DNA from: Corallochytrium limacisporum Hawaii
Taxonomy: Eukaryota; Protista; Pluriformea
Length of the DNA: 64,000 nt
Direction of reading: 5' to 3'
NCBI GenBank assembly: GCA_002811645.1
Contig: PDIP01000142.1
Location: forward strand, 1 to 64,000
The position numbers and the translations under genes were made by a program. Below are positions 7,103 through 13,100 of the stretch, piece after piece. How positions within the stretch are numbered: the first letter of the stretch is position 1; each line of letters starts with the position of its first letter. The notes below the pieces were generated by a model, which was not told the DNA's origin, ran no database searches, and saw only the letters and a program-made list of their open reading frames with translations.

Positions 7103-10100
7103 CTATAATTTCCTTATGGAGTTCGTGCTTTTTGGTAATTTCCTTTTTCTTTCGTCGTCTTTCGGCTTCTCAGAGTTTTCCCTCTCCCTGTTCTTAGGGC
7201 CGCTACCATACTTTGTACGAGTACGTCTTCGTCGTCTGTTCTGGCTGCTGTGACTCTTTACATCCCGGGGTTGCAAGAAGTCATCGCTTCCATCGTCATC
7301 ATCATCACCACCATCGTGGCAGACTTGATCCCCTGGAACCAGCTGGGCGGTCCTTGTCACTTCGACCAAGGGGCTACGTTTCAGCCGACATGTCTCAGTT
7401 GCAGTCCGAACGTAGGGAGACAAGGGCTTAGGCAGTTTGTGGGAACCTGTGTACGGACCCAGAGGCATGGAAGTCCACCGTGTTGCTGCTGCAGCCACCG
7501 GCGGCTCTGGCTTGAAATCACCTTCGGCCGTGTTCTGCTTCCGCTTAGCGTCGTCAGAATAGGGCTGCATGGAATGAACCACAGGACAGCAAAGTGCACT
7601 GCGCATGTGTGTAAAGACATCAGCAAAGCACACTTCCAGAGCAAAGCTGGCCAGGTGGGACTGTCTGCGCGGATCTTCCAATAGGTACCGATCAAGCATG
7701 ACGTCGACGGTGTGGCCCATGGCAGTGGCCAGTTGCTCGAGGAACAGTTTTTTGCCCCCGCTGCCCGTGGTGTCGATCAGGCTTAGTGTATAGGTTACGG
7801 CCAAGTGGCGTACCTTGTGGCTTGTCATTTTGCATTGGCCTCCGCTGAGAGTGTCCAGGGCACTCTTGAATGCATCGCCCACCGCCTGTTTGCACGACGC
7901 ACACTCTTCCCGTGCCCCGGCTGGATCAGCCTGTGTCGGACACCGGGTGCACTTGAGCGGAAACAGGGGCATTCTTTGTTTCAGCGAAGTCATTTCCTTG
8001 GTTGTCCTCGCCAGGTAGGCGCACCGGGCGTGCATACGCTGTTGTAGCTCCGGCACGGTCAATGCTGCCGCGTCAGATGGTCGTGGCATTGCTGCAGTTG
8101 GTTCCCCGTCGGGTCCCTTCCGGCTTGTGGGGATTGGGTACAGCGCCATGTCGGGAGGAAAGACGGAGTCTGGTAGGGCCACTGGCAAAATGTAGTCAAC
8201 GTACCACTCGAGCATGCGACAAGTGTACCTGTCTAGGCAGGTGCGGTCAATGTAGGCATAATGCCAGCGACTGGTCTTGTGTCTGAGGGGCCACAGAATG
8301 TGACCTCTGTGGGAGGCAGGATCGGAGGTACCCTTATCCGCGGTGGCAGGGCAAAAGGACCGCACGTTCGCTGCCCTGAGCACACCCTGGCGCGGAAAGC
8401 CACAGCCCATGACCTGTAGAATCAAGTGGGTCTGAATTGTGTAGACGAAGTCACCCAGTCTTCGGGAAGGAGTCGTCGATTCCTTCTTCTTCGCAGTCAG
8501 TGCCGTCCCATCGTTATCATCATGACCACCACCATCCTCCTTCGGTGACCACCATGGTGAGGTCGCAGCAAAGTTCCCGCCGGATCTGACCTGCTGAAAG
8601 ATGGGAATGAGGACCTCCTGGCATGACTGGTTCAGGTAGTCATCCAGACCCTTCAGCCCATCCCGGCTGATCTTGCCGGTCGCCAAGGCACGATCGTGGG
8701 AAGAGCAATACTTGTCCATCTTCTTTTGGTGCGTGTCCAACTTTCTGATGGCAATTTTCAGATCACTGATGCTCTTTTGCCAGGTGGCCAGGACACTGGC
8801 ACCGGTCATCTTCTCTGCCACAAGGCGGAGCTGTTGGACTCCTGCGCCGGTGTTGTCGAATCTAGCCCTCGCGCTACCCGAGAACGGCTGTTTCTTTCCC
8901 TTCGCCATCTTCAACACAACGCTACGCAGGGAACTGCTGATATTGAGCACCTTGCGCATCTTCAGTTCCAAAGTCCTGGGTGTGTTGTACCGGGCGCGAA
9001 GCTTTGGGTCCCCACGGGCATATGCTACGCCAATGGCGTGAAAGTGGCGGCAGAAGGAAATGTGCTCGTCCTGATGTGCGTTCTGGAACGCGACAAATGC
9101 TTCGACCAACGAGCGTTCGGACAGAAGCTGGATCCATGATACCACCATTCTGTGGTCATAGAACGGCTGCAGCAGTTTGGTTGGGTCAGTGAACACACCC
9201 TGTTTTGAGACTGAAACCATCCAGCCATGGGCCCGATGGCAATGGCACAGGTATTCACGTACAGCGCTGAGATGGTGCATGGTCGTCTTGCGCGGCTGAC
9301 TTGCTGCGATGGCCAAGAGTACTTTCCACTGTTGTTGGTCGCCGCAGTGAGTCTGTCGCCAAGACAGGTACCAATGGCATCGCTGTAGCGCTGTGGCGAC
9401 AACGGGGCCAAGGATGTGCCATAGGGTCTCGCCATGCCTCCTGACAAAGGACATCCAGTCCATTGCAGTCTTAGTCGTGGCATTCTTTGGATGAGGGTGA
9501 CGGGCATCGTCGTTACTGACAAAGTCACCGCGGCCCAGTGAAGTCTCGTCCACAATGAGGTCGAGGTTCGTGTTTGGCAGCCTGTGGAGAAGGGCAATAG
9601 GCACCACAATGCGGCTCAAGGCCAGCAACGCGCAGACATCTTCCGTGTCCTCGTCATGGTCATCTTCATACAAGTTGTGGCTGCGGTCACAGTCATCCGC
9701 ATCGTCATCATCAACCGTTTCGTCCCAAACAGAATCCTCTTCGGTCTCGTCATGACCATTGTCCCCAGTGGTCGAGCCGTCTCCCAACAATTGCCCCTTT
9801 AGCCCCCTATCCGCGATTGCTCCGGGCTCCGGCTGCTCCCGCTTGGGAGCACTGTTGTGGTGCTCAACGCATTCCTCCTTCACCTTCACCTTCTCCTTCA
9901 CCTTCTCCTTCACCTTCTCCTTCTCCTTCTCCTTCTCCTTCTCCTCCCTCTCGTCGTCGCCGCCTTCTTTTTCTTCCTCTTGCAGTTTGTAGTAGACGAT
10001 CAAATCCGTCGTCGGATTTATCGGTGGAATCACAGCTGGGATGGTGGCGGTGGAGGCGAGTTCAGTCGGTGTAGCGCCGCACTTGTTGTACTTGTCAGAC

Positions 10101-13100
10101 TCTTTCAGATCATTGAACCCATTCTCGAGAGTGTCCCACGTGGACCGGAAGGCTGGAATGCTCTGCAGCCGGGACGCTTCGCGGTTTGACGAGATCGCAG
10201 TCACGGCCTTGCCAAGGTTTCTCCCTGGTGTACGTGCGTAGTAAACATCAGCAGTGGATTCGGAGAGCTGTACGCTGTTCAGGTGCGCCCTCTTGAGCTC
10301 ATAGTTGCCGTCAGTGATACCCGACTGCTTCATGGCACGGATCTGACATTTGCGTGCGGTGCGTGATCCCATGCGGATGGGCATCATGGTCACCAACTTG
10401 GTAGGCAGAGGCCTGCCCTGTAATTGCCTGAAGCGGTGCCATGCTGCCCAGTTGAAGATACGGAACAGACCGTCCAGGTAGGTCTGGTTCACGGGCACAC
10501 CTTGGTGGGTCAGCAGCAGATGCACCTGTGGTTTGCCACTCCGCTCGGCGAGGATCGGTTGCACGTATTTGCCATAGATGCGAAGAACGCGCGTGACCTC
10601 CGGTGGAATGGGAATCTCAATGGCGTGGCCTGCCAGATGGTTCTTGTGTTCAATTGGTAGCTCCACAAAACTGACCATGTCGTGTTGTGCACGGTCCCAA
10701 TGGGCCAAATGTGCGAGGTGTTGGATGCCTGTTGCCTCTTTTGGTGGACTAGAACAGTCCACAGAATCATCTCCTACTTGCCTGTCCACGGAAGTCATGC
10801 GCAGTCGCAGAGCTGGCTCCTGCTCGTAGCCCTCGCGGAACTCTTGAGTGGGCATCTTCAGGTTGCACAACACATCCGGGCGCTGGTTTGGGCACAAATA
10901 AGCCAGTGCCATGGCAAGATATGCCACCTGTTGCACACGGAGATGACTACTCTTCTTGCGGACATAGTCATGGACCAGGGACTCTTGAACTGTGCCCTCG
11001 TGAGCCGAAACCAGACGGTTCAGTTCCCGAAATGGTTCCTGGACGAGTATGTTAAGCCCCATCATCAACTCACGTACTCCTGTCTCCGGCGGTACGTGAC
11101 CCGTATCCACATCGTGGCGACTGGTCTGCGCGGCGTTGTCCACGGTGATTTGCGGGTACAGATCTGGGTCCTCTCGGGTGAGGCCCGTCAGAAAGTCTAG
11201 CACACGCTGTGACCCATCGAGAACAAAGTGACTCCGGGCAGCGGTAGGCATCATTTCGTGGACATTGGCAGAACGCAGGCTCTCAACGACCGTTTTCATC
11301 CTCGTTATGGTATTTCTTCTGGCCCCCGGTCCCTTCACCCAGTACCACTTATCCAGAGGAAAGGGATCGTCAACCCCATTGCTACCGCCGCCGATGTTGA
11401 TGTCCTCAACAAAGTTCTTCCCCTTGTGCACCACTACTCGACGGAAAAACTCCACGTGCCAGGTTGGTTCCGCAACGAGGACCTCAATCAGTAGCAATGG
11501 ATCACAATTGAGGTCCTCGACCTTCCTGTGCAAATGACATTCGGGTATATCACTCTGCCTGTGCGCCTCGGAGGTGTAGTAGTCGTATTCACGGTCCTTC
11601 TCATCGTCGCCGCCGTCGCGAGTCGCCCGGGTCGCGATTTCCAAGAACAGGGCCCAAAATTGGCGGGCAATGCCCAGCAGGGAATTGAAGTACGAGTTTT
11701 GGTCAGTGGCCTCGGAAGTGACGTACTTGGACAGGGCAGTTTCAACCAAGGACTCTCCTCGATTCTTAATATTGCGCAGGAGCCAGTCCTCCATACGTTG
11801 CAGGTCCTTGGGAAAGGAACACGTGGACCGCTCGAAGGCTAAGAGAGCAGCTTTGGACCAGGTGCACCGCTTGCCGCCCACTGTAGCTTGGTTTGGTATC
11901 CTCCGAAAGGTTTTTCTCTGCGATTCGTTAAAGTACTTTTGCAAGCTCGGTGCGACCACCATGGCGTCCAGGAGCTCCACAATCGCATTGGCGGCCAGAC
12001 CGGGCTCCATGGTACCAATACCTTGGTAATGAGCCAGCATGGTCGTTCTGCGCTGCTTGGCCTCGCTGTGCGCATCGTAGAGAGACTGCCAAATGGATTG
12101 GTCAGGAAGAAGCTCCATGGCCGCCTGCAACACCGGTTTCGCCACTTTGATCACCTCGATCGCATCTCCGTTGAGTTCCACTTTCTCCTTCGGTTTCCGG
12201 TTGCGTTTGTGGTAGACCACCGGAATCGATGGGGGCGATGATACCGCTGTGGCCATCGTCCTTGTCTTTGTGCGTGTCCTGCTGGGTTTGCGGTTGGGAT
12301 GGTGATGAGTCCATGTGTTGATTTGCTGGACATCACCAGTGATGGGATGATACGTGGGGAATGGACGCTCGTAGGTGCCATTTCCGACAGGGAGACTCGA
12401 TCCTAAATTGCTGCTCTCGACTGCCACTCTTTTCCTGATCCGCACCTGCTCGTGGGTTTTCAACACAAGCAGGCGCTCATCGTCATCGTCGTACTCGTGA
12501 GCAGCAGCAGGCCAGGGCGCGGAGCTGAGCTGCTCAGGTTTGGGGTGATGCTTTAGTCCACCGCACCAGCCCGTGAAGGAATGAAAGGAAGCAACCAGAT
12601 CGCAGGTTAGTACCATCTTTAATTGTCCCGCGGTCATGGGAACCGGCAAATCCAATGACACACGGATTACAGTCGAGTTCAGCATCAATTCGTACTCATA
12701 TTGGGCCGCACAGGCATGCAACACAGCGTGTAAGTGGGGTTCCAAGTCCGAATGAGTTGGTCTGGGGACAAAGACCACATCCCAGAAGCGGGCGCGTAGT
12801 GATTGCTTGGGTGGTCGAGACTCTCGGTCGTTGTGGAGCGGATCCTCTGGTTTCATCGTCCCATGGCTGTGGCTCCGGTCGTCATCATCGTGATCCGGGG
12901 CAATGAAAATGGTGATGATGCCCGTTGTCCCCCATTGCTCCTGCTCCTGATCTGGAGGAGGACAAGGAGGAGGAGGAAACGGTGCGTTCCTGTCGTCTAA
13001 CTTTAGGATGCGCAGAGGGCAGGTATGGCTTATGAGGTCGTCCCGGGATGCAAAGCCCTGGGATCCGCATTGAATGCATCTGAATGAGTGTATGGTAGTC

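Follow-up and report, generated by a model that had tools for sequence, protein, structure and literature searches.

What is a single, very long gene resembling a tyrosine recombinase (YR) gene doing beside a tRNA gene in a eukaryotic nuclear genome? We addressed this question for a 64,000-nucleotide stretch of contig PDIP01000142.1 from Corallochytrium limacisporum Hawaii (referred to here as the window), in which an intact tRNA-Pro gene and a copy of that gene's tail enclose 6782 bp. Within this interval lies a 2008-amino-acid (aa) open reading frame (ORF), P0001, with an upstream and a downstream YR-like unit, which we designate YR1 and YR2. We found that the enclosed stretch is likely a mobile element, with tRNA genes as its insertion targets in the style of a bacterial genomic island. 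That this is a YR-driven, tRNA-targeting element with two YR-like units, the core that the readings below have in common, is a conclusion we hold with good confidence; how the two units share the work is a more tentative matter.

A candidate integrative element at a tRNA-Pro gene

The case for insertion begins with a direct repeat of about 190 bp. Its copies, at 6842-7029 and 13628-13811, align with 169 matches and 10 mismatches, plus gaps, and blastn gives 93.4% identity for the first 151 bp (E 2e-60); the 64-kb window contains no further copy. Counted outward from the core in blocks of 25 columns, the identities run 24, 21, 20, 25, 25, 23, 16 and 18, then 12 and 11. The repeat starts two bases before the T-loop of the tRNA, and the duplicated part of the tRNA is its 3' 22 nt. 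The displaced fragment carries a substitution at tRNA position 61, a change that would presumably break the last T-stem pair and the B box of the RNA polymerase III (Pol III) promoter. Because the two repeat copies have diverged, position 61 included, the insertion is not fresh. By analogy with the layout of prokaryotic islands, the copy next to the intact tRNA gene would be the element-borne one.

This arrangement has the configuration and orientation by which Islander recognizes islands, as described in PMC4383910: an intact tRNA gene and a displaced end fragment, on the correct side and in the correct orientation. A tyrosine integrase gene lies inside the interval, as judged from the YR2 motif and profile evidence, at scores below Pfam thresholds; P0001 is the sole long ORF in 7030-13811, and its end is 73 bp from the far junction. 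The island definition also calls for a prokaryotic host, and here the flanking genes are eukaryotic. The first-pass annotation had placed its feature at 7670..10950, a span that falls inside the locus but covers only part of the ORF (7103-13129) and of the element (7030-13811).

The two junctions differ in symmetry. On the tRNA side the sequence forms a dyad about the 7-nt loop (8 of 14 positions, with 5 contiguous base pairs), while the far junction, at the element end, lacks dyad symmetry (2 of 14); the odd half-site therefore belongs to the element. An asymmetric T-arm target, which the first-pass annotation had suggested that a fused recombinase pair could recognize, was accordingly rejected: the T-loop site is symmetric, and the T stem-loop site is also termed symmetric in PMC8371274. 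Clear arm-type repeats were not found near the two element ends.

Assembled contigs from two DNA runs (X1 and X2) of one sample, possibly the source of the window, are identical to the window over 6928-9867 and 9980-13340; among the pieces listed, none bridges the EK/VK-repeat region that separates these two spans. Contig depth over the element is about that over the flanking genes. As to expression, no RNA data set was listed as carrying the gene; a 223-nt piece from run X3, whose RNA status is a guess, lies at 12709-12931, and none came from X4, which gives no evidence either way.

Tyrosine-recombinase-like units of P0001

Two tandem sets of YR motifs in one polypeptide had been proposed from the first reading of this DNA, and all 13 residues named in that proposal are found where it put them, in one 2008-aa ORF. 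The EK/VK repeat that it described between the units is also there, at about 9865-9960, adjoining a stretch rich in Asp and Glu. YR2 has the R-K-HxxR-H/W-Y order and spacing of canonical YRs, a strict motif that was present in 28 of 2000 shuffles. A looser motif that admits YR1 gives 9 matches in the real protein against 6.4 per shuffle; because this frequency is near chance, the YR1 motif alone is not evidence.

Two further lines of evidence bear on both units. In ESM Atlas features, each half lies at 0.96-0.97 to YR-like clusters, one of them with PF00589 on 15% of its members, and the top neighbor of the YR2 half is a cluster named 'EsV-1-213-like'. The recognition values, 2319 and 2261 (the latter for the YR1 half), straddle the guide of 2300, and we counted the results for the two halves as one source. 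We also built a hidden Markov model (HMM) from 35 phage and bacterial YRs at 36 loci (L001-L006 and L056-L085); integrase loci L007-L055, mostly near-duplicates, were excluded, with L006 alone included from one near-identical integrase set. Across P0001 and its paralogue P0004 (below), the model scored 4.7 and 4.9 bits for YR1 and 4.8 and 6.1 bits for YR2, and a score of at least 4.7 bits was reached by none of the 79 windows taken from host proteins and by 2 shuffles in 1000. In a sliding window, the score peaked over the two catalytic regions only.

The HMM match in YR1 spans the hairpin and helix following K829, and MAFFT registers K829 with the canonical Lys and R923-x-x-R926 with the canonical HxxR. 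The same alignment assigned the second of the two histidine positions (His-III; the first is His-II) to H949 and misplaced the first arginine (Arg-I) in both units. Our assignment of His-III to L955 comes from the nine-residue His-to-Tyr spacing found in 28 of the 35 references, and Arg-I and Tyr of YR1 were assigned by order and spacing. Together, the ESM and HMM results bear out the proposal that both halves are YR-like, and both regions are probably YR domains. Sequence searches added little: Pfam gave no family at E up to 10 with HMMER filters on, whether for the whole of P0001 or for parts of it, PHROG gave a single weak integrase match, to the YR2 tail (E 0.036), and a PDB sequence search gave no match for parts of P0001. 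YR1 and YR2 have no detectable similarity to each other, so the halves would descend from an old duplication or from a fusion of two different YRs. A recent tandem duplication of one YR was rejected, as the halves do not align.

P0004 was the only homologue recovered: it is 1918 aa long, 42% identical to P0001 over residues 400-1870 and one of 6059 candidates, and a profile search of 1.84 billion representatives returned it as the only match. Its source name is Clim_evm15s221, in which we take the prefix Clim to stand for Corallochytrium limacisporum, a unicellular relative of animals. A second contig in X1 and X2 has nine differences from the window in 8654-8686; worked by hand, four of them yield two P0004 residues (S to P and L to F) and five are synonymous. 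Because differences in this contig yield P0004 residues, the same genome likely encodes P0004 as a paralogue.

P0004 holds both units in the same order, with all six YR2 residues kept. In its YR1, the R, K, R and Y964 are kept (Y963 is not), with Lys at His-II and Met at His-III. The P0004 gene model ends in a FAM183 domain (a ciliary microtubule protein; aa 1807-1909, E 9e-18), which is probably a merge with a neighboring host gene and possibly a true fusion. Because the model was probably merged, its continuity is not proof of one protein; the P0001 frame is continuous in the window. Near-length homologues at E up to 1 were found neither for the YR2 half (8000 candidates) nor for the YR1 half (7999), a search that longer or shorter fused forms would fall outside. 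Viral contigs, metagenome contigs and phage records yielded no relative, and among 401 genomes of one bacterial phylum, matches in 6 at E up to 0.05 are at chance level.

Possible division of labor between the units

Both histidine positions of YR1 are replaced, and Cre recombinase offers a guide to what this may mean. At His-II of Cre (H289), Lys and Arg are among the five of 19 substitutions reported as inactive; at His-III, W315L and W315M are weak with detectable activity; and Cre, according to the authors, cannot adopt the arrangement of type IB topoisomerases (TopIB) (PMC2943603). Set against Cre, YR1 combines one substitution of the inactivating type with one of the weakening type, in both paralogues. 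Since H289R/K is inactive and W315L/M weak in Cre, YR1 is probably impaired. Among the reference YRs, 34 of 35 have His at His-II and 35 of 35 have His or Trp at His-III. A definition that asks for His at the first position and His or Trp at the second leaves YR1 out (Arg or Lys; Leu or Met); one that asks for Arg-I, Lys, Arg-II and Tyr takes it in. The four residues kept in YR1 are those to which Cre is most sensitive. Given the background conservation of YR1 (R 9/22, K 6/10, Y 6/9), all four would be kept by chance about 7% of the time, a figure that, coming from two sequences, is weak.

The first-pass annotation had called YR1 catalytically degenerate. The replacements stand, being conserved by class in the only homologue (Arg or Lys at His-II, Leu or Met at His-III) together with the R, K, R and Y; that the domain is dead is not established, given an identity of 50% between the paralogues in YR1 against 56% in YR2 (29% in the linker) and four key residues kept. 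Judged from these comparisons, YR1 is probably impaired or re-tuned but maintained, rather than decaying.

We lean, with less than even confidence, toward a model in which P0001 is the element's recombinase and its fused units act as a XerC/XerD-like pair, YR2 cutting and YR1 serving as a weak or non-cutting partner, a pseudo-heterodimer. In this scheme, a circular form bearing the tRNA 3' end and flank would recombine at the 7-nt T-loop with the tRNA gene, which would thereby be restored. The four subunits of the synapse would come from two polypeptides, whose YR2 units would carry out the exchange of one strand pair. The Holliday junction could then migrate only into the ~190-bp shared block, and the host would resolve it through replication or repair, as in XerC-only CTXphi integration. 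The role of YR1 would be to occupy the second half-site, the dissimilar arm of the element included, and to stabilize the synapse. Parts of this scheme have precedents. Holliday junction formation by XerC alone, with resolution by replication, has been described (bioRxiv 10.1101/2021.09.09.459576), as have the non-catalytic YR-fold partners Tfp and GinC (PMC10214605), a functional engineered heterodimer of fused Cre-type units (10.1101/2020.11.02.328013), and prokaryotic islands with a regenerated target tRNA, a displaced 3' fragment and a subsite in the T region (PMC4383910).

Several observations weigh against this model. The tRNA target is symmetric, so the target itself requires no heterodimer. 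Long identity blocks also accompany fully active bacterial integrases. Both copies retain Arg-I, Lys, Arg-II and Tyr of YR1, although a dead domain would have no need to, and one of the 35 references (L085) has Arg at His-II. The HMM scores are low (4.7-6.1 bits), with hhalign probabilities of 26% and 7%. AlphaFold2, run on two-row alignments, returned a predicted local distance difference test (pLDDT) score of 35.8 for YR2 and 32.0 for YR1 and no usable structure. Finally, no empty-site or circle joint appears among the listed contig joints over 1800-13790, which ends before the tRNA gene is reached; these joints come from the assembled X1 and X2 contigs, and contigs drop rare forms. In the structural check of the YR fold proposed at first pass, pLDDT was 32-36, Foldseek returned no match for the low-confidence YR1 model, and structure searches with such models are uninformative; support for the fold comes from sequence. 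The predicted YR1-YR2 complex scored 0.26 against a mark of 0.34.

Reference L085 (G005:C14:34331-34744), a bacterial YR with R-x-x-R at His-II, lies about 1.5 kb from a second YR on the opposite strand.

A different reading of the same element, which we consider rather unlikely, is that both units cut, YR1 through a reshaped site (a TopIB-like basic His-II and a hydrophobic His-III), with both exchanges made in fixed order. The R, K, R and Y kept in both paralogues would fit, as would the conservation of YR1, about that of YR2. His-II and His-III are also tolerant positions in Cre, with detectable activity for Leu or Met at W315, and viral TopIB is reported to have a Lys three residues before the Arg. 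The Cre data also count against it, with Lys and Arg inactive at H289 and Cre barred from the TopIB arrangement, and in YR1 both substitutions co-occur.

It is improbable that YR1 stands outside the synapse as a DNA-binding directionality, architecture or self-repression module, leaving four YR2 units to recombine a symmetric site. The symmetric tRNA site would suit such a homomer, the linker is long, variable and only 29% identical, and non-catalytic YR-fold proteins exist (Tfp/GinC, and the MrpR repressor). Yet Tfp and GinC are described as lacking the RHRY motif, whereas YR1 retains Arg, Lys, Arg and Tyr, and the sequence near the two ends showed no clear arm-type repeats.

We give little credence to the idea that P0001 descends from a recombinase gene that the host has domesticated, or was carried along in a local duplication, with a repeat made by some other process and no DNA movement now. 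P0001 has a host-like composition (a third-codon-position GC content, GC3, of 0.64 against 0.49-0.75 in nine host genes), only two copies, about 40% identical, are known, the diverged repeat marks an insertion that is not recent, and no mobility was seen. Against this, the T-loop is a known YR subsite and the repeat has its start two bases ahead of it, the insert contains one long gene, and the YR2 active site is complete in both copies. Least credible of all is that YR1 owes its motif to chance and is no YR domain: the loose motif is indeed expected 6.4 times per shuffle, and YR1 has no Pfam, PHROG-integrase or PDB match and no similarity to YR2, but it lies at ESM 0.96-0.97 to YR-like clusters, and in both paralogues its HMM score exceeds that of every one of the 79 host windows and of all but 2 of the 1000 shuffles, with the match aligned on the catalytic Lys.

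Host context and relation to known elements

The features of the element are collected in Table 1. The window genes are eukaryotic (SH3, SPRING1, Forkhead, IPPK, RPL19e, NUP210, CYFIP and kinases), and host genes flank the element on both sides. Four of the six host proteins looked up have exact EukProt entries; P0001 has none.

Table 1. Features of the candidate element and of P0001 (positions in the window)
Feature	Position	Strand	Basis
Integrative element, 6782 bp, one long gene (likely)	7030..13811	-	Bounded by direct repeat; X1 and X2 DNA contigs match most of length without other letters
Displaced tRNA 3' end (7008-7029 = tRNA positions 52-73) with ~165 bp of downstream flank, attR-like junction	6842..7029	-	Alignment to 13628-13811
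7-nt T-loop copy at far junction, putative crossover core	7021..7027	-	Homology ends 2 nt past
Element-side copy of tRNA 3' end and downstream flank, completes tRNA, attL-like	13628..13811	-	Repeat alignment
Intact tRNA-Pro(AGG), target gene	13790..13861	-	ARAGORN; Rfam RF00005, 55.5 bits, E 4e-10
P0001, 2008-aa ORF with two YR-like units	7103..13129	-	Uninterrupted frame; homologue P0004
Zinc-finger-like N-terminal CxxC...HxC (C18, C21, H35, C37)	13019..13078	-	Four residues kept in P0004
N-terminal portion of unit 1 (aa 311-730), conserved; core-binding domain likely within (putative role)	10940..12199	-	46-50% identity to P0004
YR1 catalytic domain, aa 731-985: R750, K829, R923-x-x-R926, L955, Y964; both His positions replaced	10175..10939	-	50% identity to P0004; ESM; HMM
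Linker (aa 986-1165), acidic with EK/VK repeat; P0004 counterpart ~70 aa shorter	9635..10174	-	29% identity
N-terminal portion of unit 2 (aa 1166-1555), helical; core-binding domain likely within (putative role)	8465..9634	-	41-45% identity to P0004; helical in low-confidence model
YR2 catalytic domain, aa 1556-1850: R1580, K1618, H1771-x-x-R1774, H1806, Y1815, canonical	7580..8464	-	56% identity to P0004, six residues kept; PHROG integrase E 0.036; HMM
CxxC-x12-CxxC insertion within YR2 (C1727, C1730, C1743, C1746); possible zinc site	7892..7951	-	Four Cys kept in P0004
Basic low-complexity C-terminal tail, aa 1851-2008; possible nuclear localization signal	7103..7579	-	23% identity to P0004

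Elsewhere in the window, two long ORFs of 1123 and 732 aa, separated by 191 bp at 34795-40556 (-), share the Ig-like domains of NUP210 between them and are probably one intron-split gene. A 1228-aa protein at 52991-56677 (-) joins a FYVE-like finger, an ABC1 atypical kinase and a beta-lactamase-family domain, and a protein kinase at 47560-50937 (+) has an N-terminal DEP-like domain and what we take to be a greatwall/MAST-like look. At 27565-29751 (+), a Q/P-rich protein has a weak Forkhead domain (E 1.4e-5, under the curated cut-off). Six assembly gaps appear as runs of N (1600-1721, 14738-14886, 24328-24511, 25506-25577, 41032-41082 and 46693-46878), none of them in the element; two assembly gaps visible in the sequence or translation are at G/C homopolymer tracts.

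The closest parallel in layout is with prokaryotic tRNA islands and prophages (PMC4383910; PMC8371274), which are described with the same restored tRNA, displaced 3' fragment in the same orientation, crossover region in the T stem-loop and internal YR gene. Unlike them, the element reported here has a eukaryotic nuclear host and a single gene, whose 2008-aa double-YR product has no detected prokaryotic relative. Cryptons and Starships, like this element, are eukaryotic DNA elements with a YR and no reverse transcriptase, and some Starships are reported to target a Pol III gene (5S ribosomal DNA, rDNA). Starships are described with direct repeats of 2-16 bp and an expected disruption of 5S (PMC11162782), whereas the present element has a repeat of about 190 bp and an intact tRNA. 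P0001 has no Pfam match to the Crypton (DUF3504) or Starship captain YR families and has two catalytic domains per chain; membership of either group failed on the Pfam profile and on the shortness of their repeats. Dada elements are likewise eukaryotic DNA elements that target tRNA genes, but with a DDE transposase and with disruption of the tRNA (PMC8869645). A DIRS-type retrotransposon was rejected, given the single long ORF and no Pfam match for reverse transcriptase or RNase H.

With XerC/XerD and the integrative mobile elements exploiting Xer (IMEX; CTXphi, and ColE1 cer), the likeness lies in two different YRs acting at one site, where one can make the sole strand exchange and replication resolves the product. 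XerC and XerD are separate, closely related host proteins, both catalytically complete; the units of P0001 are fused, unalignable and element-encoded. Multi-YR elements (RIT, Tn554, and SE/GInt with IntA, IntB and Tfp/GinC) also combine several YR-fold units, some of them non-catalytic. These are described as separate bacterial genes with short terminal inverted repeats, and Tfp/GinC as without RHRY, where YR1 keeps R, K, R and Y. RitA is described as having two core-binding domains, not two catalytic ones (PMC8138268). RecF8 (10.1101/2020.11.02.328013) links two different YR monomers in one chain, as here, but is synthetic with both active; P0001 would be its counterpart in nature.

A likeness to viral YRs (polinton-like virus (PLV), virophage, giant virus, nimavirus) lies in the name 'EsV-1-213-like' of the top ESM neighbor of the YR2 half. 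Nimavirus YRs are reported to target 28S rDNA or telomere repeats and to carry a zinc-binding domain (PMC10871703). The insert differs from viruses in having no capsid, polymerase or ATPase gene, and the cryptophyte PLVs described in PMC12220804 are not near tRNA genes. A polinton-like or endogenous giant virus was rejected: the insert is one long ORF, and the other long ORFs of the window are host genes. YR-rich giant repeats are reported in Amoebidium (PMC11244446). We found no prior description of a natural YR with two catalytic domains in the open-access literature; Repbase Reports and supplements could hold one.

As a tentative proposal, one that we put forward with reservation, the locus may represent a class of eukaryotic DNA element that is new: a nuclear 'genomic island' with a single gene, whose T-loop integration rebuilds the tRNA, with a natural single-chain YR heterodimer that makes one strand exchange and leaves resolution to the host inside the ~190-bp block. 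YRs normally act as four separate subunits, and fused pairs have been engineered for genome editing; in a natural fused YR, subunit order, half-of-sites activity and the role of a weak partner would become testable with two point mutants of one gene. Integration that restores the tRNA is a bacterial and archaeal hallmark, and the eukaryotic DNA elements described in the literature cited here as targeting tRNA or 5S genes disrupt the genes that they enter. With a eukaryotic integrase directed to the near-universal T-loop, transgenes could be landed at a harmless site, and the element bears on the route by which prokaryote-style elements may have entered the relatives of animals.

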